A stretch of 64,000 nt of DNA from the IMG/VR virus record IMGVR_UViG_3300012209_000005, positions 1 to 64,000 of that record; one strand, 5' to 3'. Both the position numbers and the translations under genes were made by a program. This DNA is from a virus. This document shows, in pieces, positions 18,380 to 35,368 of the stretch (within the stretch, counting starts at the first letter, position 1; every line of letters begins with the position of its first letter). The notes beneath the pieces were generated by a model that was given only the letters and a program-made list of their open reading frames with translations, was not told the DNA's origin and searched no databases.

Positions 18380-18450
18380 GGGGATGAAGCCAACGGCAGG
18401 CCGGAAGCCTCCAAAACTTCTCTGATCAGGTTCGACTCCTGACATCCCTG
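18380..18450 (+). tRNA. tRNA-Trp(CCA)
   Basis: Cloverleaf; loop CTCCAAA; T-arm tcagg-ttcgact-cctga; A at position 8. Confidence 0.8.
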
Positions 18451-18619
18451 CGGATCACCACCGGGCAACCGGGGAATGTGACTGCGATCCTGGTAACACC
18501 GGGGTCATGTTGAGAACTGCATAAGCTACAGGCCGGATGGCTGGCGACTAGGGAATGCACTGTGCATGAGCGGTAGTTGAACGCTGTGCATTGGTGTCCG
18601 AGGCTTCCATCCGGCTCGT

Positions 18620-18694
18620 GGGGACTTAGCTCAGCCAGGTAGTAGCTCCTGCTTTGCATGCAGACGGTCGCGGGTTCAAATCCCGCAGTCTCCA
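18620..18694 (+). tRNA. tRNA-Ala(TGC)
   Basis: G3:U70, loop TTTGCAT. Confidence 0.88.
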
Positions 18695-18707
18695 CTTGTA
18701 AACGCCA

Positions 18708-18780
18708 GGGGATATAGCGCAGCTGGTAGCGCGTCTCGGTCGCATCGAGAAGGCCCGGGGTTCGAGTCCCCGTATCTCCA
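18708..18780 (+). tRNA. tRNA-Ala(CGC)
   Basis: G3:U70, tctcg-GTCGCAT-cgaga. Confidence 0.9.
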
Positions 18781-19288
18781 CGGTTTGACAGATAGAAACG
18801 AAGCTGATAGCTTGTTCTTACTGCATGTGCTGGGTCCGCCAGATTGGCGCAGACCAGCTGTCTGGGGGAGCAAAGCTCCGCTTCCCTGGGGGAGCGAAAG
18901 CTCCCCTCCTGCCTCGGTGGTGGAACGGAACACGCTCCCTCGCAAGGGGAGAGATTGGCAGTATCGAGTCTGTCCCGAGGCTCAACCCCGGTCGTCTAAA
19001 GAAGATGCCTCCCCAACGGGGGAGAGGATGCCAGTGTCGAATCTGGCGCGGGGGCAAAGGCTGGGCCCGCGGCTCAGCCTAGGTGGTGCCGGAATAACCC
19101 TACGCGCAGGCTGGGGGTAACGGCAGTGCACGGCTAGAGCAAGGCAGAGTGCAATCGCATGAGCCGAGGGAGTGAGCACGCTCCCGGCTAGCCAAGGGTA
19201 GCAACCGGTGTACGGGTGTTCGCGTATTGTTATAGGCAACTCTGTGCCGCGAACTTGAGGGTAGCCAAACCCCTCCCACCGACCACAT

Positions 19289-19361
19289 GGGGCTTTAGCT
19301 CAGCTGGTAGAGCACCTGCATGGCATGCAGGGGGTCACGGGTTCGAGTCCCGTACGCTCCA
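19289..19361 (+). tRNA. tRNA-Ala(GGC)
   Basis: cctgc-ATGGCAT-gcagg, G3:U70. Confidence 0.9.
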
Positions 19362-19362
19362 C

Positions 19363-19521
19363 ATGAAAGGTAAGGCTAACCCGAAAACCCGGTCGGCCCT
19401 GATAAAGCCGCACGGGGAAGCCAGGAAAGACACCTGCCCGACATGCGAGAACGGGAAGCGGCGCAGGGTGGAAGACTGCAGCCTCTGCCAGGGCGGGGGC
19501 TGGGTGTGGGTCAGCGAGTGA
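19363..19521 (+). CDS. small Zn-finger protein
   Basis: CPTCENG...CSLCQGGG (DnaJ-like CxxCxGxG). Confidence 0.55.
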   Translation: MKGKANPKTRSALIKPHGEARKDTCPTCENGKRRRVEDCSLCQGGGWVWVSE

Positions 19522-19534
19522 AAAGGATGCGGAA

Positions 19535-19717
19535 ATGGCACGGTTCATCGCTATCGCCTGCCTCGCCGGCGGGGGAGCATGCGCAGCCTATGACATAGGC
19601 GTGAGGCACGTGCCCCTCACCGGGTGGCATGTCGACTCGCTGCAGGTCGTCGGATGGGTCCTGGTGGTCACCGGGATCATCGCCGCGGCGACGATCAAGC
19701 CTAAGGGGCTGAAATGA
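19535..19717 (+). CDS. small membrane protein
   Basis: 60 aa, two hydrophobic segments. Confidence 0.55.
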   Translation: MARFIAIACLAGGGACAAYDIGVRHVPLTGWHVDSLQVVGWVLVVTGIIAAATIKPKGLK

Positions 19718-19808
19718 AGCGGTCGGATCTCATCTTCTACACCGTGGCGGCAGCGCTGGCGCTGGCGTTCATCGTCCTGGTGTTCACGGGTCACATCAAT
19801 CCGAGCAG

Positions 19809-19880
19809 GTAACGTCTGGGTGTAGTTCAGCTTGGTAGAACGCCGTAACGTCTGGGTGTAGTTCAGCTTGGTAGAACGCC
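19809..19880 (+). repeat. perfect 36-bp tandem duplication containing a tRNA-Pro 5' half
   Basis: gtaacgtctgggtgtagttcagcttggtagaacgcc x2 (19809-19844, 19845-19880). Confidence 0.95.
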
Positions 19881-19881
19881 G

Positions 19882-19953
19882 CGGGTTCGAGGAAGGCGGA
19901 AATCCGCCTCGTTCGGGACGAGGAGAAGCCGGGTTCAACTCCCGGGAGCCCGA
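19882..19953 (+). tRNA. tRNA-Pro(CGG), atypical D-arm
   Basis: cgggttc/gagcccg acceptor, cctcg-TTCGGGA-cgagg, ccggg-ttcaact-cccgg. Confidence 0.78.
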
Positions 19954-19975
19954 CTTGAGAGATCGTCGCGAGTAT

Positions 19976-20350
19976 ATGCGTGTATACCAGCAGGCATGGC
20001 TTGCCGATAGACGCAAGAGAGCTATCGCGATTCTCGGCGGTAAGTGCGCCTGGTGCGATAGCGTCGAGGATCTTGAGGTTGACCATATTATCCCCGCCAG
20101 GTGGATGGGATACGAAAGTCCCGGAGGACAGCTATGGTCATGGTCATGGGCGCGCATAGAAGTCGAACTAGCGAAGTGTTGGCTTCTCTGCCAAGAGTGT
20201 CATCGCGTTAAAACTCGTGATGACATGCCTGACACTCTACATGGCACTCCGGGCATGTACCACAACAAGCGTTGCCGCTGCGATAAGTGCAGGAAGTGGA
20301 TGAGAAATTACAAGCGTGACTACAGGGCACGCAAAGCAAACGGGATGTAG
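19976..20350 (+). CDS. HNH homing endonuclease
   Basis: LGGKCAWC...LEVDHIIP...KCWLLCQECHRVKT...HGT..Y...CRC..C; lower GC than flanks. Confidence 0.88.
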   Translation: MRVYQQAWLADRRKRAIAILGGKCAWCDSVEDLEVDHIIPARWMGYESPGGQLWSWSWARIEVELAKCWLLCQECHRVKTRDDMPDTLHGTPGMYHNKRCRCDKCRKWMRNYKRDYRARKANGM

Positions 20351-20415
20351 CTCAGCAGGCAGAGCACCGCGTTTAGGCACGCGGAAGGCCGGGCGTTCGA
20401 AGCGCTCCATCCAGA
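20341..20415 (+). tRNA. tRNA-Pro-like gene with 8-nt anticodon loop (TTTAGGCA)
   Basis: C1:G72, A73, ccgcg-TTTAGGCA-cgcgg, T-arm gggcg-ttcgaag-cgctc; G2:A71 mismatch. Confidence 0.65.
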
Positions 20416-20486
20416 CGAAGGCTGGCGAAAGGAAACTCACAAGGGGACCCTCCCCGTGCGGGGGAGCGCCAGCCTCACCACCACCC

Positions 20487-20557
20487 CGGGATATAGTGAA
20501 GCGGTATAACACCTGCCCTGGGAGCAGGTGACGGAGGTTCGACTCCTCCTGTCCCGA
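20487..20557 (+). tRNA. tRNA-Pro(TGG)
   Basis: cctgc-CCTGGGA-gcagg (C33). Confidence 0.8.
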
Positions 20558-20632
20558 CGGGAGCATTCGCATGCGAGCAGCCCAGGACGCCCGTAAATAA
20601 CCTGGGTTCTCTCAATACAAAAACGGGCACAT

Positions 20633-20705
20633 GGTCGCCTAGCTCAAATGGTAGAGCGGTCGCCTGAAAAGCGACAGGTTGAGGGTTCGACCACCTCGGT
20701 GACCA
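20633..20705 (+). tRNA. tRNA-Phe(GAA)
   Basis: gtcgc-CTGAAAA-gcgac. Confidence 0.9.
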
Positions 20706-20708
20706 CGC

Positions 20709-20977
20709 GGCACGGTAGCTGCGCAGAGAATGGCGGTTACTTCTTTCACCGGATAAGTGAGTGGTTGCGGGTTCGAGTCCCGTCGCCTTAGCAGAAACCT
20801 TGCGGAAATGCCAGGGTTCCGCCTGGAAGGAAACTTCCGGGGAAGGGCCCCGAGCGTCGCGAGGCGGGGCGTAGTTCAATGGCAGAACGCTAACGATGCC
20901 TCCGGGGTTACACCCGGGGCAGCTCCCCCCGCGGGGGGCAGAAACCGCTCCTCGCCTGGTTCACTACCGTGCCACCA
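20709..20977 (+). ncRNA. YrlA-like Y RNA (permuted tRNA-mimic domain)
   Basis: Terminal stem ggcacggtag/ctaccgtgcc; T-arm gcggg-ttcgagt-cccgt precedes D-arm gttc-aatggca-gaac; ends ACCA. Confidence 0.7.
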
Positions 20978-20980
20978 TCT

Positions 20981-21087
20981 CCATGCCGGCTGCGAAGACA
21001 CAAGGGGTTACTTCGCCTGTCTGCGGAACAGGATCGCCCGCGAGGGCATCCGAGTCACCCCGCCGTCACAATGGTCCACCGGCATGG
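20981..21087 (+). ncRNA. second Y-RNA-like element without tRNA domain
   Basis: Terminal stem ccatgccgg/ccggcatgg; shares gctgcg.aga...ggttacttc leader with the preceding RNA. Confidence 0.5.
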
Positions 21088-21304
21088 CTCAACCCTCCTG
21101 GCCTCGCCTTCCCCATTGCGGCCAGGGGGCACGCGGTACCGTCGGCAAGGTACCGCCCGGGGGTGAGGTCCAGTATGCCACCGTCGTCTGGAGACCTCCC
21201 CCCAACAGGGAGGGTGCCCGGGGAGCGCACACAGTTACCCCTGGGCACCCTCCCGCCTATAGCGGAGCTTCGCTCCCCCGGGGCAGCCGCAGGCTGCGCC
21301 TCTG

Positions 21305-21375
21305 GCGGATGTAGTTCAACGGCAGAACCTCAGGCTTCCATCCTGATGACGCGGGTTCAATTCCCGTCGTCCGCT
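21305..21375 (+). tRNA. tRNA-Gly(TCC)
   Basis: tcagg-CTTCCAT-cctga, U73. Confidence 0.9.
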
Positions 21376-21376
21376 C

Positions 21377-21688
21377 GTGACAGATACCGAAAAGATCACC
21401 GGGAAGCTCAGCTACAAGCCCGGGTGGGCGTTCGCCTACGCGAAGGACCAGTTCTATGATGTGCTCATCATCAGCGGGCTGGTGCCCGACTCCCGGGACC
21501 CGTCCCGGATGCTGGCATTCGAGACGCGCAGGCCCGTTCCCGGGTACCTGCGGACCGCGAGCCAGGATGACTTCCTCGACTGGGTGGGGCAGCTGCTCCT
21601 CGAAGCCGAATACCATGAGCTGCGGGAGTACTTCCGCTACGACGGGGAGCTTGTAGACAATCCGCACAAGGTCAGAGGAGCAGTGTAG
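21377..21688 (+). CDS. hypothetical protein
   Basis: 103 aa, YKPGW...EYHELREYFRYDG...PH, GC3-rich. Confidence 0.7.
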   Translation: MTDTEKITGKLSYKPGWAFAYAKDQFYDVLIISGLVPDSRDPSRMLAFETRRPVPGYLRTASQDDFLDWVGQLLLEAEYHELREYFRYDGELVDNPHKVRGAV

Positions 21689-21848
21689 GTGCACACGGAA
21701 GGTCACCCCGCTTCCCGGGCGGCAGAAGGGGGCACATGATAATCTCATGGCCCTGCAGGTTCCTGATGTGCAGGCGCGGTCATGTGTGCACGCTCCGGGG
21801 ATGCCGGTGCGACTGCCACGCGAAGAGAAAAGAAGATCGCCGTATCAG

Positions 21849-21923
21849 CGGGATGTAGTTCAGCGTGGCTAGAACGCCTGCCTGGGGGGCAGGAGGCCGG
21901 GAGTTCGAGTCTCCCCGTCCCGA
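21849..21923 (+). tRNA. tRNA-Pro(GGG)
   Basis: cctgc-CTGGGGG-gcagg. Confidence 0.9.
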
Positions 21924-22037
21924 CGTGGTGAGAGAATGGATACGGATGAAGTTCAGGATGCCGCAGCCGGAGTGGCCCGACTACCTGTGCTGGGGTATCA
22001 TCATCGTCTTGCTGGTCATCATCCACATGGCGGCGAC

Positions 22038-22337
22038 GTGAAGCTGAAAGACAGCAAGATCTGCTGGAAGGGTCACGTGCCTCACCATGTAGCTGGATAC
22101 GAGGAGCCCCTGCGCACGCCCTGCCGGTTCGGGTACTGCATGATCCTGCGCTGCCCGAACTGCAAGCTGGAGTGGGGCGGCTATGGTCCGATCGACTGTC
22201 CGCATAAGAAGAACGAGAACGGCACCCTGCGGTCGTATAAATACCCCGACATGGACGAAAAGACCCATGTCGCAGTAAAGGAGAATAAAGACATGCGAAA
22301 GCCTAAGCGCTTTAAGCGCACCCGTAAGATCCGGTAG
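22038..22337 (+). CDS. hypothetical Cys/His-containing protein
   Basis: 99 aa, GTG start coupled to a small upstream ORF. Confidence 0.55.
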   Translation: MKLKDSKICWKGHVPHHVAGYEEPLRTPCRFGYCMILRCPNCKLEWGGYGPIDCPHKKNENGTLRSYKYPDMDEKTHVAVKENKDMRKPKRFKRTRKIR

Positions 22338-22403
22338 CTCAGTCTGGTTAGCAGCGTCCGACTCTTAATCGGCAGGTCGTGGGTTCGAATCCCACCCGGA
22401 TCA
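22328..22403 (+). tRNA. tRNA-Lys(CTT)
   Basis: loop CTCTTAA. Confidence 0.9.
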
Positions 22404-22432
22404 CGCACGAGCACACCGAAAGGAAGAGTAAC

Positions 22433-22675
22433 ATGGCATGGGGGCGCAAGTGCTGCAACAGCAACCGCGTCAAAGGCCAGCCTAACACGCGGTTCGCCTG
22501 CCAGTGCGATCTCACCAAGTGCAAGGGCTGCCGATGCAAGGGCTGCGGGCCTTGCAGGCAAAGGAGGCAATATGAAACCGGACTCGCCGAAACGCCAGGC
22601 TCCGGTAGCTTAATGGCAAGCGTCCGACTTTTAATCGGTTGTTATGCGGGTTCGACTCCCGTCCGGAGTACGTGA
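22433..22675 (+). CDS. Cys-rich small protein (reads through tRNA-Lys)
   Basis: MAWGRKCC..CQC..CKGCRCKGCGPC; AGGAAG RBS. Confidence 0.45.
   Translation: MAWGRKCCNSNRVKGQPNTRFACQCDLTKCKGCRCKGCGPCRQRRQYETGLAETPGSGSLMASVRLLIGCYAGSTPVRST
22599..22670 (+). tRNA. tRNA-Lys(TTT)
   Basis: loop CTTTTAA. Confidence 0.88.
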
Positions 22676-22716
22676 TCACTCCCCAGGGCATTATCGCTAA
22701 AACCAGGACGACGACA

Positions 22717-22821
22717 ATGGACAAGGTTGAGAAATGCTGCTGGGGCAGGACAAAATGCCACTGCTCTTCAGGATGCCCGTGCATCAAGACGCACGGCTGC
22801 ACGAAATGTGAGTGCACATGA
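22717..22821 (+). CDS. metallothionein-like Cys-rich peptide
   Basis: MDKVEKCCWGRTKCHCSSGCPCIKTHGCTKCECT (9 Cys/34 aa). Confidence 0.5.
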   Translation: MDKVEKCCWGRTKCHCSSGCPCIKTHGCTKCECT

Positions 22822-22996
22822 GGCACATGATGCGGATACACGGCCCCGGGAAAGACGAGGGCAAAAGCAAGCTGTGGAAGTGCCCGCACGGGTGCCTGGC
22901 GGTTCTCCCGGGTGCCACGACCGGGCGCAGGTATGCCGTGCGGCGGCCGAGGTGCGCATCCTGCCACCGTTCCATGACTGAAGTGAAGGACCGCTA

Positions 22997-23077
22997 GGGC
23001 GGCTGGCGGAATGGCAGACGCGCCGGCTTCAAGTCCCGGTGTCGGAAGACGTGAGGGTTCGAATCCCTCGTCGCCTA
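22997..23077 (+). tRNA. tRNA-Leu(CAA)
   Basis: loop TTCAAGT, long variable arm. Confidence 0.88.
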
Positions 23078-23090
23078 CGGTAGTAAATGA

Positions 23091-23164
23091 TCCCCTCTAG
23101 TTCATCTTGGCAGAACGCTCGGCTCTGGACCGGGAGGTACGAGGTTCGAATCCTCGGGGGGGAG
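23091..23164 (+). tRNA. tRNA-Gln(CTG)
   Basis: loop CTCTGGA, U1:A72. Confidence 0.9.
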
Positions 23165-23420
23165 CCGGGGTCGCGGCAATGATCCTGGAGCCGTGACCTC
23201 ACGGCTGCCGCGAACCCCGCTTGCAGGAGGAAGATATGAAAGAAGAAGGCAATGTCACATCACTCTCTCTCTGATGAGCACACGGTCAGGAAGACGGGCA
23301 GGAAAATCACGGTGACACGCTCCTGTTCGTGCGGGCTCTCCTGGATGGGCACGGGCCGGAGGCTGAGGAGCGCGGAAAGGAACCTGAAGTCGGCCTGGAA
23401 GAAGCATCTCGCATAGCCCT

Positions 23421-23495
23421 GCCTCCTTAGCTCATTCGGCGTAGAGCATGGCTCTCGTAAAGCCAAGGCGGCCGGTTCGATCCCGGCAGGAGGCT
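23421..23495 (+). tRNA. tRNA-Thr(CGT)
   Basis: tggct-CTCGTAA-agcca. Confidence 0.9.
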
Positions 23496-23496
23496 C

Positions 23497-23745
23497 GTGA
23501 ACATACACGACAGGAATCAGATGGTCCTCGGGATCGCCCGCGACCTGGGGGAGAAGTTCGGGCTGGAGCAGACGGTGCAGGACGCTTGCGGCGACCTGGT
23601 TTCCGGGGTTAGGATCAGCGAGGTGGTGATGTCTTTCAGCGAGGGACTGAGAGCCTCGGTGCCGATCTCCGGGAAGGTCGTAGATGATGGCGATATGCCG
23701 GAAGTGCCGGATGTACTCCGCGACGCGGGGGAAGTTGTGCGTTAG
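23497..23745 (+). CDS. hypothetical protein
   Basis: 82 aa ORF immediately after a tRNA. Confidence 0.5.
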   Translation: MNIHDRNQMVLGIARDLGEKFGLEQTVQDACGDLVSGVRISEVVMSFSEGLRASVPISGKVVDDGDMPEVPDVLRDAGEVVR

Positions 23746-23869
23746 ATGCTTCAAGGCTGGGGGGTAGTCACGCGCCGGTGCCCGCACTGTGACCAGCTGC
23801 AGTACCCCTGCCCGGTTTCCGAGTGCTGCTCGGGGGGCTGGAAGCACTTCGGGACCGGGCACCACGCAT

Positions 23870-23954
23870 GCGCTCGTGGCGGAACGGCATACGCGCCAGC
23901 TTGAGGTGCTGGTGAGTCGCAAGACTCGTGGGGGTTCAAATCCCCCCGTGCGCA
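23870..23954 (+). tRNA. tRNA-Leu(GAG)
   Basis: ccagc-TTGAGGT-gctgg, long variable arm. Confidence 0.9.
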
Positions 23955-24033
23955 CTGGTCCGGGGTCGTCAACCGGATACGGGCAGCTGATCGTCTTACC
24001 CGGGCGAGTGCCACTGCCCGTCCCCGGGCCTTT

Positions 24034-24107
24034 GCCAGCTTAGCTCAGCTAGGTAGAGCACCCGCTTTGTAAGCGGCAGGTCATCGGTTCGATCCCGTTA
24101 GCTGGCT
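24034..24107 (+). tRNA. tRNA-Thr(TGT)
   Basis: loop TTTGTAA. Confidence 0.9.
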
Positions 24108-24240
24108 CGAAGGGAACAGAAATGAGAAGATGCAAATACTGCAAGACCTTGCGGTTTAAGTCACAGCTGAAGCGCGGCGCAATGTTCGGCAACCGGATCT
24201 GCAAGAACAGGGAAGCCTGCGATAGGCGCAAGGCGGCTAG

Positions 24241-24313
24241 TGGGCGGTAGCTCAACCGGCAGAGCGTCCGGCTTTGGTCCGGAAGGTTCGGGGTCCGAAT
24301 CCCTGGCGCCCAG
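24241..24313 (+). tRNA. tRNA-Gln(TTG)
   Basis: tccgg-CTTTGGT-ccgga; T-loop TCCGAAT variant. Confidence 0.82.
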
Positions 24314-24328
24314 CAACAGGAGAATGTC

Positions 24329-24595
24329 ATGGAGATCATCGAGCTTGTCCCCGGGGCGCACTTCCCGGGCGCGGTGGAGCTGCCCAACAAGAACGTGCGG
24401 TGGGTGAACGGGACCAACAAGTCGTCCCCTGGAGGCAACTCCGTCCCGAAGAGGAAAGGCCGGATGGTCATCCCGGGCAAGATGCACGCCGATATCCTCA
24501 AGCAGTCGCAGGAGCAGACGAGGCGGCATGCTAAGATCCTGGTGATCTCCGGGGGCAAGAGGCGCTGGGTGCTGGCCAGCGAATGGAAGGACTGA
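24329..24595 (+). CDS. hypothetical protein
   Basis: 88 aa, AGGAG RBS. Confidence 0.6.
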   Translation: MEIIELVPGAHFPGAVELPNKNVRWVNGTNKSSPGGNSVPKRKGRMVIPGKMHADILKQSQEQTRRHAKILVISGGKRRWVLASEWKD

Positions 24596-24598
24596 CAG

Positions 24599-24805
24599 GT
24601 GGGCAGGCAGGAAGAAGAGCACAGCAAGCGGGAGCCGGTACCCGTCAGCTGGCGGGATAAGCACAGCCGCAGCCGCCATCGGACGGCGGTCCCGCTGAAG
24701 TACAGGGACCACCCGCGGCGGAGCTTCTCCACGCGGGCAGCCGGCTGGGTACTTGCGTTCATCGTGCTCTTCTGGTTCTTCCGTTTCGTGCTCCACGCAG
24801 GGTAA
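24599..24805 (+). CDS. small membrane protein
   Basis: C-terminal TM helix. Confidence 0.5.
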   Translation: MGRQEEEHSKREPVPVSWRDKHSRSRHRTAVPLKYRDHPRRSFSTRAAGWVLAFIVLFWFFRFVLHAG

Positions 24806-24811
24806 GTGCCA

Positions 24812-24884
24812 GCCGGGGTAGCTCAGTGGCGAGAGCGGCTGCATGGTAAGCAGCAGGCCCGGGGTTCGATCCCCCGTCCTGGCT
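24812..24884 (+). tRNA. tRNA-Thr(GGT)
   Basis: gctgc-ATGGTAA-gcagc. Confidence 0.9.
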
Positions 24885-24935
24885 CGATGTGGTAATATTC
24901 TCACATCAGGCGACGTGAGGATATCCTCACACCGC

Positions 24936-25009
24936 GCGGTTGAAACTCAGCCTGGTTGAGTACTTGCTTGCCAAGCAAGAGGTCGCGGGTTCGAATCCCG
25001 TCAGCCGCT
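24936..25009 (+). tRNA. tRNA-Gly(GCC)
   Basis: cttgc-TTGCCAA-gcaag. Confidence 0.88.
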
Positions 25010-25198
25010 CGCAGGAGGACCAGATAGGGATGATACTGGCTAGACACTGGCATCTCGGTCCTCCTGCAGGAACCGCAGAGGTCAAGGCAGACTGGAACGG
25101 ATAGCCCCAGCCTGGGAATTCGGCGGTTTCCTGGTGGGCTGGGGACCGGAGGCGCCCCCCTGATTCACCCTTGATGCCCCCGGTCCCCGCTTGTTGTT

Positions 25199-25269
25199 GC
25201 GAGCGTAATTCAGTGGCAGAATGCCAGCTTCCCAAGCTGGCCACGCGGGTTCGATCCCCGTCGCTCGCT
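25199..25269 (+). tRNA. tRNA-Gly(CCC)
   Basis: ccagc-TTCCCAA-gctgg. Confidence 0.9.
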
Positions 25270-25438
25270 CAAGGGATGAGGCTGCCATCCCCTAACCGCG
25301 AGAATCTTAGCCTACTGGGCAAGATGGCTCCGGGTATGCAGCAAGGCGATGCAGGTCCCGGGAGAAGATGCGCCCCCGGTCAAACGCTCCCCGCACCCCC
25401 CCTGAGAGGATAGTGTATGAGCTGCCTGCATCACCTGT

Positions 25439-25523
25439 GGGCGGATGGTGGAATGGCAGACACGCTGGCCTCAGGAGTCAGTGACCCGGAAGGGTCGTGG
25501 GGGTTCAAGTCCCCCTTCGCCTA
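25439..25523 (+). tRNA. tRNA-Leu(CAG)
   Basis: loop CTCAGGA, long variable arm. Confidence 0.9.
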
Positions 25524-25537
25524 CGGAAGGGAACGCG

Positions 25538-25945
25538 GTGGTGGACGTTAAGCAGGTCATCGTCATCCGCAAGGACCTGGGGATGCGCCGGGGCAAGGAG
25601 ATCGCCCAGGGCTCGCACGCTTCCATCGCGTGGCTGACGAACAGGCTGACGATGCTCGGGTACGTCAACCCGGGGGAGCGGGGCAAGTACGCCAGCTGCC
25701 ACCTGACCGAGGCGGAGTGGCAGTGGACGGACGGCAACTTCCGTAAGATATGCTGTGTCGTGAACAGCGAGGACGAGCTGCTCGAACTGGCAGCGAAGGC
25801 GAAGGCCGCGGGCCTTGTCTGCGAGGTCATCGAGGACACCGGGCTCACCGAGTTCGGGGGCGTGCCCACGCTCACCGCGCTGGCGATCGGGCCCGACTAT
25901 GACGAGAAGATCGACCCGGTGACCGGGAACCTGAAGCTTTACTAG
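25538..25945 (+). CDS. pth2: peptidyl-tRNA hydrolase, Pth2 type
   Basis: KQVIVIRKDLGM..GK..AQ..HA, W.....KI, I.D.G.TE....T.TALAIGP, ID.VTG.LKLY. Confidence 0.92.
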   Translation: MVDVKQVIVIRKDLGMRRGKEIAQGSHASIAWLTNRLTMLGYVNPGERGKYASCHLTEAEWQWTDGNFRKICCVVNSEDELLELAAKAKAAGLVCEVIEDTGLTEFGGVPTLTALAIGPDYDEKIDPVTGNLKLY

Positions 25946-25951
25946 GAGACG

Positions 25952-26146
25952 ATGATGCACTACCTGCACATGCTGCGCATGGACCCCGCCTGGTACCTGC
26001 AGAAGCTCTGGTGGGCGGGAGTCCTGCTCGGGCTCATCCTCATCCTGGTCACCGCCGGGAAAAACAGGCGGCGCGCCAGGACGGCGAAAGCCAAGGCTGA
26101 GAAGGCCTCCCCCCCCGAGTCCGGCAGCCCCCGTCTGCGGGGCTAG
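25952..26146 (+). CDS. small membrane protein
   Basis: one TM helix, AGGAG RBS. Confidence 0.55.
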   Translation: MMHYLHMLRMDPAWYLQKLWWAGVLLGLILILVTAGKNRRRARTAKAKAEKASPPESGSPRLRG

Positions 26147-26151
26147 CATAC

Positions 26152-26200
26152 GGAGAGTTCGCCTAGTCTGGTCTATGGCGCGTTACTTGTAATGTAATGT
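26152..26200 (+). pseudogene. truncated tRNA-Ser-like 5' fragment
   Basis: ggagagttcgcctagtc identical to the start of tRNA-Ser(GGA) at 28422; no T-arm or acceptor 3' strand follows. Confidence 0.7.
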
Positions 26201-26218
26201 GCTATGCTGATATTACCT

Positions 26219-26301
26219 GGAGGATGAACCAGACAGGCGTGCTGGGCTCCGTTGCTAGCGGATGCGCGGGAAACCGTGGCTTTCGAATAGTCCGTCCTCC
26301 G
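26219..26301 (+). tRNA. tRNA-Ser(GCT), atypical
   Basis: ggaggat/gtcctcc acceptor, tccg-TTGCTAG-cgga, variable arm, weak T-stem. Confidence 0.7.
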
Positions 26302-26302
26302 C

Positions 26303-26785
26303 ATGGTGCGATCTATCGAGTTGACTCAGGGTCGCGAGGCACTAGTTGATGACGAGGATTACGACCAGGTTTCGCAATTCAAATGGTATGCGGGAAAAAT
26401 CCGCAATACCTATTACGCAATGCGGACTGTCGATCACGCTACTCAGTACATGCATACCCTCATTACCGGATATGTGAAAACTGACCATAAAAACGGCAAC
26501 GGGCTGGACAATCGCAAAGAAAACCTTCGTGAGACAACTGATGTACAGAATCAGCACAACTCTCAACGTTCCCGCAGTAACACCAGCGGATATAAAGGTG
26601 TCAGCTGGGAGGGGCGCAGGAACAGGTGGCTTGTTCTGATAAGAGCAGATGGCAAACAGCGCTTCATAGGACGATACCCTGATGTCATCGAAGCTGCTCA
26701 CGCTTACGACAATGTGGCTCGTCATTATTTCGGGGAGTTCGCGCGAGTTAACTTTCCCGAAGAGGCGTCGGAGGAAATGACATGA
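26303..26785 (+). CDS. HNH-AP2 homing endonuclease
   Basis: I.LTQG..ALVDDEDY, YMH.LI, TDH.NGNGLDNRKENLR, NTSGYKGVSW, AA.AYD..A...FGEFA..NF. Confidence 0.93.
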   Translation: MVRSIELTQGREALVDDEDYDQVSQFKWYAGKIRNTYYAMRTVDHATQYMHTLITGYVKTDHKNGNGLDNRKENLRETTDVQNQHNSQRSRSNTSGYKGVSWEGRRNRWLVLIRADGKQRFIGRYPDVIEAAHAYDNVARHYFGEFARVNFPEEASEEMT

Positions 26786-27258
26786 AACTGGCGGAAGCGC
26801 TCGCCGAGCGCGCCGACATCGACAAGAAGATCGCCCAATTGCGGGAACGCGCCAAGGCCTCCGCCCGGTACCTGGAAGGCGAGGAGCCCGCCGAGTCCGC
26901 GCTCGCGCTCATCGGCGACACGCGCCAGCTGCTCACCCGCAGGATGGACCTGGTGCGCAGGATCAACCTGACGAACTCCGAAACCCGCATGGTCCGGAGC
27001 AGCGGCACCGTCACGATGACCGAGGCCCTGGCGATGCGCGAGTTCATCCTCGCCGAGCGCATGCTGCTCACCGACGTGTGCAACGAGGCGTCCCCCGGGA
27101 AAGACCCGTACGGGATACGCCGACGCAAGACCGAGCTGCCCGAGAAGACGGACCTGCCGGTATCGCACCTGCGCGCCGAGGCTGACAACCTGGGCAGGGT
27201 TTTCCGGGAGCTTGACTCGGACATCCAGCAGGCGAACTGGAACACGGAGCTGATCTGA
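26782..27258 (+). CDS. DIP1984-family coiled-coil protein
   Basis: MKLAEAL.ERAD.......L..R........EGEEPAE....I..TN....LD..IQQANWNTEL. Confidence 0.85.
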   Translation: MKLAEALAERADIDKKIAQLRERAKASARYLEGEEPAESALALIGDTRQLLTRRMDLVRRINLTNSETRMVRSSGTVTMTEALAMREFILAERMLLTDVCNEASPGKDPYGIRRRKTELPEKTDLPVSHLRAEADNLGRVFRELDSDIQQANWNTELI

Positions 27259-27573
27259 TGAAGGCAGCGAAGAAAGTCCTCGGCACGGAAGACAAGCTTG
27301 AGCGCAGGATCAAGGTCGCGATCGCGGTCCTGAACGCCACTCTCATCGCGAGAGCCCTGAGGAAAGCTTTCAAGAAGAAGAAGGGCACGCGAGGGTAGCG
27401 GGAGTCGGTAACCGGGTCAGGGTGAGCACGGCCTTGCTGCTCCGTTGCAGTCCTCTGGAGGCGTCCCGGGCGGCGTCACGGTCACAGGGCAGCCCAGCAC
27501 ATCAGTACACGGTACTGAAGCAGCCGTTCACCATTCACTACCGCGTGCTAACTGACCGGGTGAGGGATGATTC

Positions 27574-27942
27574 ATGGGTAAGGGGAATCCCGCTAATAGC
27601 AGGAAAAGGGAACTGGCGTTCACGGTCCCGAAAGAGAAGTTCGTCATCAAGACGTTCACCGCCGGGGGTCCCGGCGGGCAGCACCAGAACCACTCGAATA
27701 CCGCGGTGCGGATCACCCACCCGGACTCCGGGGCCTCCGCCGAATGCCGGATGTTCCGCAGCCAGCACCAGAATAAGATGACGGCTTTCCGGAACCTGGT
27801 GAACTCCGGGAAGTTCCGGACGTGGGTGAACCGGCAGCTGCTGGGAAACCCGCTGCCCCCGGAGGAGCAGGTGAAGCGGGATATGCACCCGGACAACCTG
27901 CTGGTCATGACGATGACGGACGGGAAGTGGAAGATTGATTAA
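27574..27942 (+). CDS. stand-alone RF-1 (GGQ) domain peptidyl-tRNA hydrolase, ArfB/PrfH-like
   Basis: F.AGGPGGQH.N....AVRITH..SG....C...RSQ.QNK..AF..L; lacks the codon-recognition domain. Confidence 0.9.
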   Translation: MGKGNPANSRKRELAFTVPKEKFVIKTFTAGGPGGQHQNHSNTAVRITHPDSGASAECRMFRSQHQNKMTAFRNLVNSGKFRTWVNRQLLGNPLPPEEQVKRDMHPDNLLVMTMTDGKWKID

Positions 27943-28273
27943 GTTCATCATCGTCGGCGCGCTCCTCCTGGCGTTCTTCTGGCTGATCTCGCGCCCGGGG
28001 AGGCGGCGGCGCGCCTCAGCGGACCACCAGCGCCGGAAGGCGCACAACTCGTGGCACATCAGGTACGCCGGCTTCGAGACCTCGCAGGACGAGCACGGCG
28101 GGCGCAGGGTGCACGCGAAGCAGCGGGCCGGCCGGGATGCCTGCTCCGACCAGTGCCCGCATTGCGCCGCCGGGGGAGGCTACCAGGCGAGCCTGCGGGT
28201 CTTCGATGACCGCGGTGTCCGGGGGCGCAGGGACCGGAGGGCGATGAGGGAGGACCGTGATGGCAGGGAATAA
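27935..28273 (+). CDS. hypothetical protein with N-terminal TM
   Basis: 112 aa. Confidence 0.55.
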   Translation: MIKFIIVGALLLAFFWLISRPGRRRRASADHQRRKAHNSWHIRYAGFETSQDEHGGRRVHAKQRAGRDACSDQCPHCAAGGGYQASLRVFDDRGVRGRRDRRAMREDRDGRE

Positions 28274-28421
28274 GAACGCCAGGGCCCGCAAGCACTTCAA
28301 AGGCGAGGAACGCGCCGAGAGGGCACGCCGCAAGCGGGAGCTGAAACGCCAGCGCAGGAAAGACAGGAAGCAGGTTCCTCCTCCCGGGGAACAGGAGGAG
28401 CAGGGGCAGTAGCCCTTTTAC

Positions 28422-28508
28422 GGAGAGTTCGCCTAGTCAGGCCGATGGCGCTGCCTTGGAAAGGCAGTAAGGGTAACACCTTCACGAGTTCGAATCTCGT
28501 ACTCTCCT
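28422..28508 (+). tRNA. tRNA-Ser(GGA)
   Basis: ctgcc-TTGGAAA-ggcag, variable arm. Confidence 0.9.
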
Positions 28509-28509
28509 C

Positions 28510-28592
28510 GGAGCGTAAACCGGACAGGCGTGCCGGGCTCGCCTCGAAAGCGATGCAGCCTGCGGGCAGCGGTTCAAGTCCGCTGCGCTCCT
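28510..28592 (+). tRNA. tRNA-Ser(CGA), atypical D-arm
   Basis: loop CTCGAAA; agcgg-ttcaagt-ccgct. Confidence 0.8.
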
Positions 28593-28780
28593 CCGTGACC
28601 AGGAAGCCGGTGCTCCAGTGATGTGGTTCTTGATCCTCACCGTCGTCATTATCACGGTCCCGTACCTGATCCTGTTCTTGGCCCACCCGGGAAGCGAAGA
28701 CGAAACCGTGACCGCGCGTAAGGGGAGGAGACGGTGATGCGCCAGGAGGACCCTGCCGCTGGTCGCGTTCGGTACCCCGG

Positions 28781-28864
28781 GGAAGATGCGGCGACGGCTC
28801 GCCAGCCGGCTTTGAACCCCGGCGCAGGTCTCCGGGCCTGGAAGTTCGACACTTCCGTCTTCCG
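28781..28864 (+). tRNA. tRNA-Ser(TGA), atypical D-arm
   Basis: ggaagat/gtcttcc, loop TTTGAAC, variable arm, ggaag-ttcgaca-cttcc. Confidence 0.75.
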
Positions 28865-29213
28865 CTGGAAGCGCAGCTTCGCTGCCCATGCGATCAGGAA
28901 GGAGAACTATGCCTGACGACTGGACGTGCGCGTACTGCCAGGAGCGTCTTTTCCTGGGCGTAAGCGGGGAGTGGGTCGGGCAGCGTTCCCTAAGGCGCTG
29001 CAGGAAAAGCCCTGACCTGGCGCATCACCTTGAGAAGAAGGGGAACCAGTGAGCGGAAGTGACGATGCCTGACGCGACATGCACCAGGACGTACTGCGGG
29101 TGCACGTGCCCGCCATGCCGGCACGCACGACGGAACAGGGACGACGCCCATGCCGACCATTGCGGCCGGCATGCCAGGGACTGCCACTGGATCCGGTGCG
29201 CAGGGTGAACCAT

Positions 29214-29287
29214 GGGTGCGTAGCTCAGTCGGTTAGAGCATCTTCCTGATAAGGAGAAGGCCGGAGGTTCAATTCCTCTCGCACCTA
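29214..29287 (+). tRNA. tRNA-Ile(GAT)
   Basis: loop CTGATAA. Confidence 0.9.
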
Positions 29288-29309
29288 CGTAAATGAAAGG
29301 TCCAGTCAG

Positions 29310-29513
29310 GTGAACACGGAAGAGCGCACCCCCGAAGGGCGGATTGCCGCGCTTGAGCAGCTGGTGAGCACGCTGCGGCAGGACAACGTGCGGCAGTGGC
29401 AGGCGATCCTGCGGCTGGCGAGGCTGGTGGCGAAGATCACCGGCGTCCCCGAGCAGGACATCGCGGCGGAAGAGGCGCTCATGGATGAGCAGCTCCGTCG
29501 TGCGGGCTCGTAG
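29310..29513 (+). CDS. hypothetical coiled-coil protein
   Basis: 67 aa. Confidence 0.55.
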   Translation: MNTEERTPEGRIAALEQLVSTLRQDNVRQWQAILRLARLVAKITGVPEQDIAAEEALMDEQLRRAGS

Positions 29514-29577
29514 CTCAACAGGTCAGAGCAGCTGTCTTATGAGCAGAGGGTTCCAGGTTCAAATCCTGGCGAGCCTA
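29504..29577 (+). tRNA. tRNA-Ile(TAT)
   Basis: loop CTTATGA, A73. Confidence 0.8.
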
Positions 29578-29923
29578 CGTGAAAGAAACCAGGCACACGC
29601 ATTACACCAGGTACTGGGCGACCATGACCGCCTGCAGGAAGCGGGTCGCGGATGTGGTATACTCCAGTCATTTCACGACGATGGTGACCTGCCCCGCATG
29701 CAAGGCGGCGATGCGAGATGACAAGCCGGTGGCCCGTCGGGGATGACGGTGACAACACGGGCATGGAGTGGATGTGCGCCTGCAGCTGCGGGCGGTGCGG
29801 TCCGCTAGACGAGCATGACTGCGGCACTGCAGCCTGCGATCGCGGGCACTACGAAAGATGTTCCGTCGAGAGAATTCCCCGAAGTTCCTGACAGGCAGCT
29901 GAGCTGGGCTTACCGTCAGATGC

Positions 29924-30445
29924 ATGACATTCACCACCAGCGGAATGCTTTTCAGCAAGGGCCGGCATGTCAGGCAGCGCTCACGAGTTACTGCAGTAGT
30001 CGTGACTGTCCTCACCCTGGTTGCTGCAGCGGTCTGGTCTTTCGTCGGAGCCCAGCAGGCCAGCGCCGCGGTCAGCTGGGGCCCGTCGGGGAGCCTGGGC
30101 AACCAGGCCCTGTCCTGGGCCGAGCGCAATGCCCTCGGGCACTGGTACCTGTGGGGCGGCACCGGGCCGTCCTATGACTGCAGCGGGCTCGTGATGGAAG
30201 CCTACGGGCGCGCCACCGGGGTGTGGCTGCCGCACAGCACGTACTCGATGCTCGCCAGCGGGCACCTGAGGCGCACGTACTACCCGCAGCGCGGGGACCT
30301 TGCCTTCTACGGGTCCGGGCATGTAGAGTTCGTGACAGTCCTTTACCACACCACATTCGGCGCGCACCACACCGGCACCCGTATCGGGTGGATCGGGTAC
30401 GGCGGGTCCTGGGCGCCCACCGCCTACTACCGGGTCGTCAGGTAG
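29924..30445 (+). CDS. secreted NlpC/P60 endopeptidase
   Basis: signal peptide (..QQASA/A), YLWGGTGP.YDCSGLV, GDLAFY..GHVE; start uncertain. Confidence 0.9.
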   Translation: MTFTTSGMLFSKGRHVRQRSRVTAVVVTVLTLVAAAVWSFVGAQQASAAVSWGPSGSLGNQALSWAERNALGHWYLWGGTGPSYDCSGLVMEAYGRATGVWLPHSTYSMLASGHLRRTYYPQRGDLAFYGSGHVEFVTVLYHTTFGAHHTGTRIGWIGYGGSWAPTAYYRVVR

Positions 30446-30471
30446 TGTGCCAGTCCTGTAAGGAAGAGGGT

Positions 30472-30660
30472 ATGACAGCAGCCGTCATCCGCGAGAAGGG
30501 CGTCAGCGCCAAGGGCGTCCTCGTGCAAAGCGATCCTGAGGGGAACCTCACCGTCCAGCTGGGGCTGAACGATGACGGCAGGACGAAGTTCACCGAGGAG
30601 GAGGCCCTCGCCCTGTACGAGAACCTCGGGAACATGATTGAATGGAAGCCGGAAAGCTAG
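30472..30660 (+). CDS. hypothetical protein
   Basis: 62 aa, GAGG RBS. Confidence 0.55.
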   Translation: MTAAVIREKGVSAKGVLVQSDPEGNLTVQLGLNDDGRTKFTEEEALALYENLGNMIEWKPES

Positions 30661-30667
30661 ACTTCCC

Positions 30668-30741
30668 GCGCCGTTAGCTCAGCAGGACAGAGCAGCGCCC
30701 TTCTATGGCGACGGTCAGGGGTTCGAATCCCTTACGGCGTG
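30668..30741 (+). tRNA. tRNA-Arg(TCT)
   Basis: loop CTTCTAT. Confidence 0.88.
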
Positions 30742-30794
30742 CTATCATCACTGTAAGTGCTCAGCCCAGACACTTAACGCTGTAGCACTATCAT

Positions 30795-30869
30795 GCCCCT
30801 GCAGAGCAGTCAGGAGTGTTCGCCACCCTCTCAAGGTGGAAACCGCCGGTTCAAATCCGGTCAGGGGTA
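30795..30869 (+). tRNA. tRNA-Glu(CTC)
   Basis: ccacc-CTCTCAA-ggtgg. Confidence 0.88.
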
Positions 30870-30986
30870 CGGTTGCGCTGAACGGCGTGCAGCAAGCTTC
30901 TCAGCCCTGGCGATCCGTTCCGTAGCGGTCACGTGCACAGGACCGTTCCCCTCACCGGGGGAGGGGACTACCATCCCCCCGGTCAG

Positions 30987-31061
30987 GCTCCGGTAGGCAA
31001 AGCGTGTAAAGCCGCCTGCCCTTCAAGCAGGAGTTTCCGGGTTCGAGTCCCGGGCGGAGCA
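30987..31061 (+). tRNA. tRNA-Glu(TTC)
   Basis: cctgc-CCTTCAA-gcagg (C33). Confidence 0.82.
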
Positions 31062-31062
31062 C

Positions 31063-31245
31063 ATGAGTAAATACCCGACCGAGCAAGCGCTGATCAACTT
31101 GGTCAACGACCTGGCGGACGACCTGAAGAAGATAGAGCGGGGCAACCCTGCTCACATCCCGGCGACGGCGAGACTCATACAGGCACGCAAAGCGCTGGCG
31201 TTGCACCGCAAGGGCATCAAGGCAGGCGAAGACAAGGCGAGGTAG
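31063..31245 (+). CDS. hypothetical protein
   Basis: 60 aa between tRNAs. Confidence 0.5.
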   Translation: MSKYPTEQALINLVNDLADDLKKIERGNPAHIPATARLIQARKALALHRKGIKAGEDKAR

Positions 31246-31310
31246 CTCAGCTGGCAAGAGCGCTCCGCTCATAACGGAGAGGTTCGGGGGTTCGAGCCCC
31301 CCCCTCGCTA
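31236..31310 (+). tRNA. tRNA-Met(CAT), elongator type
   Basis: ctccg-CTCATAA-cggag. Confidence 0.85.
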
Positions 31311-31492
31311 CGGTCACCCACCAGGGAGAACCCCCGTGTCCAAGAACCCTGAGCAGAAGGAAGCGGCCAGGCTGGCGAAGCTGCGGCGGCGCTGGGAGAA
31401 GGAGAACGGGCGCGGCAGCAAGAAGATGCGCACCATGTACAAGCATGCCAGCGGGCACAACGACGGACTCCCCAGGACGCCGACCAGCTGAC

Positions 31493-31521
31493 TTGACATC
31501 GGTACCCGCAGGGCATAAGCT
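31493..31521 (+). promoter_or_regulatory. HrdB/sigma70-type promoter
   Basis: TTGACA-17nt-TAAGCT directly upstream of tRNA-fMet. Confidence 0.7.
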
Positions 31522-31533
31522 TTAAACACACGA

Positions 31534-31608
31534 CGCGGAGTGGCGCAGTTCGGTAGCGCGCTGGGCTCATAACCCAGAGGTTCGCAGGTTCAAATCCTGC
31601 CTCCGCAA
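31534..31608 (+). tRNA. initiator tRNA-fMet(CAT)
   Basis: C1:A72 mismatch and three G-C pairs in the anticodon stem (ctggg/cccag). Confidence 0.9.
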
Positions 31609-31657
31609 CGAGACCCGCTAATGCGGTCCTGGGCATGACCGGAAACTGCCCTTTCAT

Positions 31658-31731
31658 TCCCCTGTAGCTCAACTAGGCAGAGCACTTGGCTGTTAACCAG
31701 GGAGTTATAGGTTCGAATCCTATCGGGGGAG
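31658..31731 (+). tRNA. tRNA-Asn(GTT)
   Basis: loop CTGTTAA. Confidence 0.9.
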
Positions 31732-31808
31732 CGAGGAGAGTTTACAATGTTAACGAGAAGACAATACGTCGGCTTCGTCGTGGCGAAACCTGGCGGTACA
31801 CATTACAT

Positions 31809-31883
31809 GGTCATGTAGAGCAGCTTGGAGTGCTCGCCACCCTGTCAAGGTGGAGGTCGCGGGTTCAAGTCCCGTCTTGACCG
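31809..31883 (+). tRNA. tRNA-Asp(GTC)
   Basis: ccacc-CTGTCAA-ggtgg. Confidence 0.9.
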
Positions 31884-31897
31884 CGTACACTGAAAGT

Positions 31898-32098
31898 ATG
31901 TACGTCTTCGACGACGAAGATGACGAGAAGAAGGATGCTGAAGTGATGCCTGATTACTGGGAGCAGATGGGCTACGTGCCCTGCCCGTTCTACGACCGGG
32001 TGACCTGGGAGGAGCTGGCCGGGGAGAGTCTCACCCATGACACCGGCCATGTCGACCACGTTGATCATGTCCTGCATTCGACTGCAGCGACATCATGA
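31898..32098 (+). CDS. small acidic/His-rich protein
   Basis: 66 aa. Confidence 0.45.
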   Translation: MYVFDDEDDEKKDAEVMPDYWEQMGYVPCPFYDRVTWEELAGESLTHDTGHVDHVDHVLHSTAATS

Positions 32099-32237
32099 TT
32101 GCAGCTTTCGCGATCGCCGGCATCGCCCTGGGCATGGCGACGGTCGTCGCAACCCTCCGGTTCGGGTTTCCCGGGCTGCTGGTCATGCTCGCGGTGATAG
32201 CGGCGGTAACAGCTGCTATCCTTAGCAGTATCCACTA

Positions 32238-32311
32238 GGACGCTTAGCTCAGCCGGGGAGAGCGCCTCCCTGACACGGAGGAGGCCGGGGGTTCAAACCC
32301 CTCAGCGTCTA
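32238..32311 (+). tRNA. tRNA-Val(GAC)
   Basis: cctcc-CTGACAC-ggagg. Confidence 0.9.
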
Positions 32312-32356
32312 CGACGAGCGTTAAACCACTGCGGAGACAGCGGAACGCTTGCTCAA

Positions 32357-32438
32357 GGGGATGGATAAGGGTTCGACTAACCTGTAAAACCGCATGTCGG
32401 AACAGGTCAGGACAGGCGTTCGATTCGCCTCATCTCCA
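32357..32438 (+). ncRNA. minimal tmRNA: tRNA-like domain only, no tag reading frame
   Basis: GGGGATG..GGTTCGAC 5' end, helix-2 acctgt/acaggt, GGAC, T-arm aggcg-ttcgatt-cgcct, CATCTCCA; G3:U70. Confidence 0.75.
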
Positions 32439-32516
32439 CTAGTTGTGACGCGAAGCGTCATGACGCTTTAGCCCGGGGTACTGAAAGGCGCTCACCCACC
32501 TGATGTCCCCGGTACC

Positions 32517-32717
32517 ATGTACGGGGAGCGTGTGCGCAGGGAACGCAGGATCGACCGCAAGGTTGGCTACGACGAAGCAGCGGTCAAGCGCTTCTTCGAC
32601 GCGCTTGACGAGAAGGACAGGAAGAAGCACGCATCACCACGCCGGGTCGCCTGGCGGCGCAAGCTGCGCCAGGAGGCATTCCCGGTCCCGGAGTGGCTGA
32701 AAGACAAGCCCTCGTAG
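32517..32717 (+). CDS. hypothetical basic protein
   Basis: 66 aa. Confidence 0.5.
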   Translation: MYGERVRRERRIDRKVGYDEAAVKRFFDALDEKDRKKHASPRRVAWRRKLRQEAFPVPEWLKDKPS

Positions 32718-32781
32718 CTCAAAGGACTAGAGCATCGCGCTACGGACGCGGAGGCTGCAGGTTCGAATCCTGTCGAGGGTG
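32708..32781 (+). tRNA. tRNA-Arg(ACG)
   Basis: loop CTACGGA. Confidence 0.9.
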
Positions 32782-32785
32782 CGCT

Positions 32786-33040: not shown

Positions 33041-33046
33041 TATGAC

Positions 33047-33517: not shown

Positions 33518-33617
33518 AAACCCGGTGCATATACCCGGGGTGCCGGCGTAGGATAAGAGTTGCGTGGAGTAACCTCGCGGTCCTGTACTGCAGGAAGCAC
33601 CGCAAGGTTGTCAGCAA

Positions 33618-35363: not shown

Positions 35364-35368
35364 CGCAT

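Follow-up and report, generated by a model that had tools for sequence, protein, structure and literature searches.

A homing-type HNH endonuclease gene amid rearranged tRNA-Pro pieces in the tRNA array of an uncultivated virus

The group I intron of the cyanobacterial tRNA-fMet gene encodes the endonuclease I-Ssp6803I. Free-standing SegB of phages T4 and T6 is a case of intronless homing: this nuclease makes its cuts within tRNA genes and causes tandem amplification around them (PMC2330249; PMC13096335). For the T4 td intron (Parker et al. 1999), a review documents one-sided homing with microhomology junctions (PMC2988022). HNH genes are also found in the tRNA arrays of mycobacteriophages, and two reports relate the proposal that they generate diversity of the tRNA repertoire (PMC5966550, PMC6409571, citing Pope 2014). 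Here we describe a locus where, with high confidence, the spacer between two tRNA genes holds an HNH gene of the homing type, with rearranged pieces of proline tRNAs around it. Most likely it represents intronless homing in a phage tRNA cluster, a process that is already known, with no new mechanism, and its rearrangement footprint is unusually legible.

The DNA analysed, hereafter the window, is the first 64 kb of the 115-kb uncultivated virus record IMGVR_UViG_3300012209_000005. ARAGORN predicted an array of 41 tRNAs on its plus strand at 18.6-35.5 kb, none of which encodes CCA. The trailer A-C-G follows the acceptor stem in 16 of the 41 and may be a shared processing signal. Three translation genes are enclosed in the array, and the same gene set has been reported for the tRNA arrays of mycobacteriophages (PMC5966550). 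Other RNA models also matched in this part of the window. A manA RNA-like match of full model length (19058-19285; 47.4 bits against a gathering score of 55.2, E 1.3e-9) lies between tRNA-Cys and tRNA-Ala(GGC), and the tmRNA model matched at 32357-32441 (57.3 bits, above its gathering score of 47) and at 18620-18697 (32.3 bits). Because the two tmRNA matches span the whole model in only ~80 nt, they are probably tRNA-Ala-like domains and not full tmRNA. An earlier note on this DNA had described a tandem repeat, an orphan tRNA half, a tRNA-Pro(CGG), an HNH gene and a further tRNA in one proline slot of the array, and all of these are present.

Table 1 Positions of features in the proline slot of the window and of the translation genes in its tRNA array.
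Feature	Position	Strand	Basis or remark
Small membrane-protein ORF, 32 aa	19714-19812	+	ORF list; left edge of slot
Exact 36-bp tandem duplication	19809-19844 and 19845-19880	+	Repeat search, 100% identity, spacing 36
Orphan tRNA 5' half, first copy	19816-19844	+	
Orphan tRNA 5' half, second copy (acceptor CTGGGTG, D arm, G26, CCGCG)	19852-19883	+	Direct reading
X-type tRNA-Pro(CGG)	19882-19953	+	ARAGORN; Infernal 41.9 bits
Free-standing HNH endonuclease gene, 131 aa, TTG start at 19955	19955-20350	+	PHROG 4234
Pro-type tRNA, 8-nt anticodon loop (TTTAGGCA)	20341-20415	+	ARAGORN 'tRNA-???'; Infernal 38.9 bits
3' half (anticodon-stem strand, T arm, acceptor CATCCAG, A73, trailer CG)	20380-20418	+	Inverted repeats, pairing table, cofold
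Hairpin spacer, 70 nt, before tRNA-Pro(TGG) (20487-20557)	20417-20486	+	Sequence, relatives
PTH2 peptidyl-tRNA hydrolase	25445-25945		Inside tRNA array
RF-1-domain protein	27574-27942		Inside tRNA array
SpoU-type methylase	34060-34662		Inside tRNA array

At the left edge of the slot, the stop codon of the small membrane-protein ORF falls inside the first repeat copy, and the ORF shows weak similarity to a small ORF upstream of tRNA-Pro(CGG) in the related array L044 (BLASTP E 2e-4, a single pairwise comparison). Each 36-bp unit consists of a 7-nt leader and tRNA positions 1-29, the tRNA part comprising the acceptor strand CTGGGTG, TA, the D arm GTTC/AGCTTGGTA/GAAC, G26 and CC. In the second copy the half runs on to CCGCG, whose last 2 bases are the first 2 of tRNA-Pro(CGG). 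Its closest 5' halves are those of the window's own Pro(GGG) (28/32) and of a D-half in the related array L053 (25/32), and its T2 is common to the T2:A71-type Pro(CGG) genes of L020 and L053. No promoter-like site was found in the region. The 26 nt that separate the orphan from the anticodon arm of Pro(CGG) were searched against the genome for a template, and generic T-arm words were all that matched.

The evidence that ties the orphan to the downstream tRNA is base pairing. Its acceptor strand forms 7/7 pairs, one of them G-U, with CATCCAG (20408-20414), the only 3' strand among the 41 tRNAs of the window for which this is the case; with Pro-tgg, Pro-ggg, Gly-tcc and Gly-ccc it forms 6/7. 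In the anticodon stem, CCGCG (19879-19883) matches CGCGG (20380-20384), and the acceptor helix extends 3 bp further into leader and trailer (CGT/ACG), giving a complementarity over 10 + 5 bp that is unique in the array. The claim of the earlier note that the orphan pairs fully, and better than the tRNA's own 5' strand, was confirmed: the own strand CGGGATG leaves a G2:A71 mismatch, whereas with the orphan 2:71 is paired and 5:68 is G-U in place of A-U, and cofolding with the 3' half yielded -37 kcal/mol for the orphan versus -27 for the own 5' half. By a crude count, about 9 of the 41 tRNAs carry single acceptor mismatches. The closest 3' halves to the downstream one belong to the R-type Pro(CGG) of L053 and to the window's Pro(GGG) (27/37 each), the same two genes to which the orphan is nearest, and a CYGCG/CGCRG anticodon stem is common to the window halves and the L053 R-type gene. 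A rough, post hoc estimate puts the chance of all these pairing features occurring together at well under 1%. The orphan and the downstream 3' half are thus probably, not certainly, parts of one former gene. An exact search of viral contigs for both halves (orphan 5' and downstream 3') gave no match, and DNA searches of the phage collection, for near and for distant matches, returned single tRNAs only. Joining the orphan to the body of tRNA-Pro(CGG) was also tried and was rejected for its poor acceptor stem (3 Watson-Crick pairs, 3 G-U and 1 mismatch).

The two CCGCG copies are 488 bp apart and, as the earlier note had it, the interval is fully explained by tRNA-Pro(CGG), the HNH ORF and the 5' half of the downstream tRNA. 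The first of these, which we call X-type, carries G8 and the unusual D arm GGAA/GGCGGAA/ATCC. It had been taken for a divergent, cassette-borne and cleavage-resistant substitute, a reading contradicted by the related array L058, where a copy identical at 68 of 73 positions (L058:2758-2830) adjoins no HNH gene and differs within its stems only at two compensatory acceptor pairs (5:68 and 6:67). Since that copy has no neighbouring HNH, the X-type tRNA is conserved and is no cassette-built substitute; judged from these comparisons, it is an ordinary conserved resident tRNA of this phage group and is probably functional. The odd D arm was also considered as a repair scar, which was rejected given the same arm in the HNH-less context of L058.

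The HNH gene is fitted tightly between its two tRNAs. Its Shine-Dalgarno sequence GGGAG (19944-19948) lies six bases upstream of the TTG, within the upstream tRNA, its stop codon TAG forms positions 8-10 of the downstream tRNA, and the ORF thereby spans from 1 nt past the former to 10 nt into the latter. In the alignment, the relatives start at the same point as the TTG reading. The product matched PHROG 4234 'HNH endonuclease' (E 4.8e-38, residues 5-128 of 131) and reached a marginal 19.4 bits with Pfam HNH, under the cut-off of 21.4; the invariant CxxC, DH and CxxCH columns are common to it and three relatives. The gene is present in one copy in the genome, and its GC content is 54-57% versus 61-67% in the flanks. 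Infernal found no group I or group II intron match in 18400-36000, nor in 19780-20600 at a permissive threshold, and no RF00028. No ribozyme was found at the locus, which argues against RNA-level repair. The homing-type and intron-less nature that the earlier note assigned to the gene is therefore upheld by the PHROG match, by the intron searches and by the occurrence of relatives in different tRNA spacers, and neither its notion of 'self-repairing' homing nor a joining of the halves found sequence support.

The family to which this gene belongs recurs in tRNA arrays. Closer relatives (58-73% identity), including P0001 and P0002/L020 at 67-73%, were found only in metagenomes, and tblastn detected genes with 39-45% identity in mycobacteriophages of clusters C and M; when the HNH protein or that of a neighbouring ORF served as the sole query of a locus search, no close relative was returned. 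In LinStu, Myrna and PegLeg, the HNH gene fills the gap between two tRNAs. Members also occupy tRNA spacers of L020, L021, L022 and G001/L005, with Tyr and Arg(CCG) as the neighbours in G001. The L044 genome has members in three further tRNA spacers, and the L058 genome has one ahead of tRNA-Trp. Overall, the arrays of actinophages and of related uncultivated phages provide at least ten other places where the family fills a tRNA-tRNA gap and touches or runs into the 5' end of the tRNA that follows. The ORF end falls -39 to +5 nt from the next tRNA start in 7 of 8 HNH loci, the value for the window being -10. These other insertions are clean, between intact tRNAs, with no orphan halves beside them. 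The distribution is patchy, the gene being absent from the proline slot in six relatives and other spacers being occupied elsewhere. This is the pattern of a free-standing homing-type endonuclease specialised on tRNA arrays.

The tRNAs on both sides of the HNH gene have the lowest Infernal scores of the array, 41.9 and 38.9 bits versus 43-71 for the rest, the downstream one being the lowest. Its 8-nt loop is set between intact 5-bp stems, and its D and T arms are intact as well. Probably it is chimeric, its 5' part being foreign and its 3' part resident. The 8-nt-loop arm had no copy in the viral or prokaryote collections, where eight chance prokaryote matches were obtained, none of them in a tRNA. 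Intact arms are odd for plain decay, so the tRNA may yet function as an unusual decoder. We regard as a long shot the broader idea that the HNH family targets tRNA genes, that one-sided repair repeatedly builds chimeric tRNAs and that the 8-nt-loop tRNA is a selected quadruplet or frameshift decoder; if it were true, phage arrays would gain new tRNA functions directly from homing endonucleases.

For comparison of the slot, we used eight related tRNA arrays, the syntenic ones being recovered through HNH alignment, the PTH2 gene and degenerate tRNA patterns. Six of them are HNH-less at this slot. L044 holds a small ORF, one canonical Pro(CGG), a 75-nt element and Pro(TGG); L043 is the same plus a PD-(D/E)XK nuclease gene abutting Pro(CGG). 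The slot of L053 contains an intact T2:A71-type Pro(CGG), a 73-nt element and Pro(TGG), and that of L057 contains Pro(CGG), Pro(GGG), the 73-nt element of L053 and Pro(TGG). In L058 the order is a 75-nt element, an X-type Pro(CGG), Pro(GGG), a second element and Pro(TGG), and G001 has three clean Pro tRNAs. By contrast with these alleles, L020 carries an HNH gene, 67% identical to that of the window, with Pro(GGG) on one side and an intact T2:A71 Pro(CGG) on the other; the gene and this Pro(CGG) share 24 nt. The HNH of P0001 would directly follow a T2-type Pro(CGG), judging by its read-through N-terminus.

Two expectations of the earlier note can be judged against these slots. It held that its reading would fail if relatives lacking the HNH kept the same arrangement: tandem orphan halves and an 8-nt-loop tRNA occur in 0/6 of the HNH-less relatives, so that this refutation does not apply outright, but an orphan-like D-arm half is found in L053 and L057, within the 73-nt element and with no HNH nearby. 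It also looked to related phages for an uninterrupted tRNA-Pro, and this was seen in kind, as the T2:A71-type gene in the L053 slot and next to the L020 HNH, but not to the letter, as an intact tRNA with exactly the CTGGGTG...CATCCAG halves occurs in no relative.

Two further features of the related slots deserve description. The nuclease gene of L043 (L043:4920-5327; PF11645, E 3.7e-21) abuts the 5' end of tRNA-Pro(CGG), and PF11645 is the family of the tRNA-intron enzyme I-Ssp6803I; the Pro(CGG) slot draws nucleases of two unrelated folds. The 73-75-nt elements are permuted and tRNA-like (L044:6831-6905; L053:4534-4606; L057:2302-2374, minus strand; L058:2678-2752 and 2922-2996), with the order closing stem, T-arm hairpin, loop-capped acceptor-like helix and D-arm hairpin. 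Each of these four arrays has one immediately 5' of tRNA-Pro(TGG), and L058 has another 5' of the X-type Pro(CGG). The Rfam YrlA model did not match these elements. In the window, the corresponding position before Pro(TGG) is taken by the 70-nt hairpin spacer, and in the relatives by a 67-79-nt spacer or a permuted element. The window locus itself does not follow the permuted (YrlA-like) order, as the D-arm half is ~500 nt upstream of the T-arm half.

Taking these data together, we propose that the HNH gene entered by one-sided, microhomology-joined break repair, which would have stranded a T2:A71-type 5' half and made the downstream tRNA chimeric; we put its chances at about even. The ancestor of the window would have had a T2:A71-type tRNA-Pro in the slot, as L053 and L020 do, and a co-infecting donor phage would have carried an X-type tRNA-Pro(CGG), the HNH gene and a Pro-type tRNA in this order. 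A double-strand break in the resident tRNA gene would then have been repaired from the donor. At the right end, homologous recombination within the tRNA body would have produced the chimeric 8-nt-loop tRNA, its 3' strand retaining A71, and at the left end a join at a 2-nt microhomology (CG) to the start of the donor tRNA-Pro(CGG) would have stranded the resident 5' half. The 36-bp unit would have been doubled later, by slippage or amplification. On this account the orphan halves, and probably the 8-nt-loop tRNA too, would be by-products and not working parts, and CCG decoding would rest on the intact X-type tRNA.

The suggestion of the earlier note that a homing element split a tRNA survives here in part, being favoured by the HNH-less alleles without the orphan repeat or the 8-nt loop and disfavoured by the clean placement that is normal for the family. 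One-sided repair is supported by the 10 + 5 bp complementarity of the halves, by the low GC of the insert, by the precedents of T4 and SegB and by T2:A71, which marks the Pro(CGG) next to the L020 HNH and that in the L053 slot. Several points speak against it. Repair at the DNA level gives no reason for a junction that coincides exactly with the start of a tRNA gene, as this one does; a simple crossover does not explain the 8-nt loop; the gain of the orphan amounts to one acceptor pair plus three flanking pairs, and two bases of its CCGCG are those of the next tRNA; and tRNA fragments exist elsewhere in these arrays, away from any HNH. The donor order was not found among the relatives.

The main alternative is a series of separate events leading to the present arrangement, a course that we regard as possible but unlikely. 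The ancestor would have held an R-type tRNA-Pro, the X-type tRNA and the downstream Pro-type tRNA, with the HNH gene inserted cleanly between the last two, as its family does elsewhere. A deletion ending where the X-type gene starts would have taken the R-type gene's 3' two-thirds and left a stump that was then doubled, and the complementarity between the stump and the downstream tRNA would be due to paralogy or gene conversion among Pro tRNAs together with a change of C71 to A. The slot of L053 resembles such a history in its order of R-type gene, X-like remnant, orphan-like 5' half and Pro(TGG), and both acceptor mismatches and tRNA debris are common in these arrays. Parts of the pairing are also less telling than they seem, as Pro tRNAs share most acceptor positions and the orphan accordingly pairs at 6/7 with two other Pro tRNAs, and the ACG trailer follows 16/41 tRNAs. 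However, the A71/T2, anticodon-stem and CGT/ACG coincidences would all have to occur together, for which a rough estimate gives ~0.1-1%, and more events are needed than in the one-step model.

We consider it improbable that the halves derive from permuted tRNA-like elements of ~75 nt, two paralogous copies of which would have flanked the X-type tRNA and lost their outer halves. All five elements, from four relatives, fold to one four-way junction, with sequences that differ in every helix, and the 10-bp acceptor helix of the window, three pairs longer than that of a tRNA, would suit a capped helix better. Moreover, the D-arm half of the L053/L057 element is 25/32 identical to the orphan, and that of an L058 element lies 7 nt upstream of the X-type tRNA, where the orphan lies in the window. 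Nevertheless, the order of D-half and T-half in the window is the reverse of that in a permuted element, with ~500 nt in between, and two near-identical copies and two deletions would be required. The two L058 elements are unlike each other, there is no T-arm remnant upstream of the orphan, and neither the L053 nor the L057 element has a significant fold z-score.

Less probable still is that the tandem duplication or its copy number is an artefact of metagenome assembly, the rest of the locus being real. The sequence is an uncultivated virus contig, and repeats below the assembler word size can be traversed a wrong number of times; yet an assembler needs a copy-to-copy junction in the reads, from which at least two copies in some genomes can be inferred, and the orphan half itself is independent of the duplication. 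Least credible, hardly to be believed at all, is a working split tRNA, in which the halves would assemble or join as RNA into a functional tRNA-Pro with the tandem copies raising the dose of the 5' half: the predicted duplex is strong (-37 kcal/mol) and both halves lie on the same strand in one probable transcript, but the context has neither an intron ribozyme nor a bulge-helix-bulge, the joined molecule would keep the 8-nt loop, the array has complete genes for Pro(CGG), Pro(TGG) and Pro(GGG), and no relative has kept the split.

The array contains a second orphan half. At 26152-26181, the 5' 30 nt of tRNA-Ser(GGA) are repeated with 27/30 identities, leader included, and homology breaks at the start of the anticodon stem. 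The half is followed by 35 AT-rich nt with a promoter-like TTGTAA-17-ATATTA (by eye) and then, within 26152-26302, by a degenerate copy of the tRNA-like sequence at 28509-28592. The region is directly upstream of a second, unrelated HNH gene (26303-26785; AP2 + HNH_3, PHROG 99). Both orphan 5' halves break off at one and the same tRNA position and stand beside a nuclease gene, which fits nuclease-linked damage; tRNA fragments that occur away from nucleases count against it.

If one-sided repair is the right reading, the locus would preserve the natural footprint left by such an entry of a homing endonuclease into a tRNA array, with both junctions readable and with empty, occupied and differently occupied slots in the relatives. 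It would help to explain how phage tRNA repertoires are shuffled and how degenerate tRNAs and tRNA halves build up.

Compared with the described systems, the window differs from split tRNAs of the archaeal type, in which halves are conserved as halves and processing motifs stand at the junction; neither holds here. With the tRNA-fMet intron and I-Ssp6803I it shares an insert at the anticodon arm of a tRNA that carries a nuclease gene, but no ribozyme was detected at the window locus, and the PD-(D/E)XK gene of L043 lies outside the tRNA. The resemblance to the one-sided homing of td consists in homology on one side, microhomology on the other, and ectopic acquisition with recipient sequence kept, although td is an intron studied by experiment and the window has an intron-less gene whose history is read from its anatomy. 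The genes of LinStu (gp169), Myrna and PegLeg (gp96), from clusters C and M, belong to the same protein family and share the PHROG and the placement in a tRNA gap; their insertions are clean, whereas the window has duplicated orphan halves and a mismatched 8-nt-loop tRNA. Finally, like SegB, the nuclease gene stands among tRNA genes and outside introns, is inherited with flanking tRNA DNA and varies in its distribution. SegB is a GIY-YIG enzyme, and the window gene encodes a putative homing enzyme of the HNH fold; unlike that of SegB, the event in the window apparently stranded half of a tRNA and made another tRNA chimeric.
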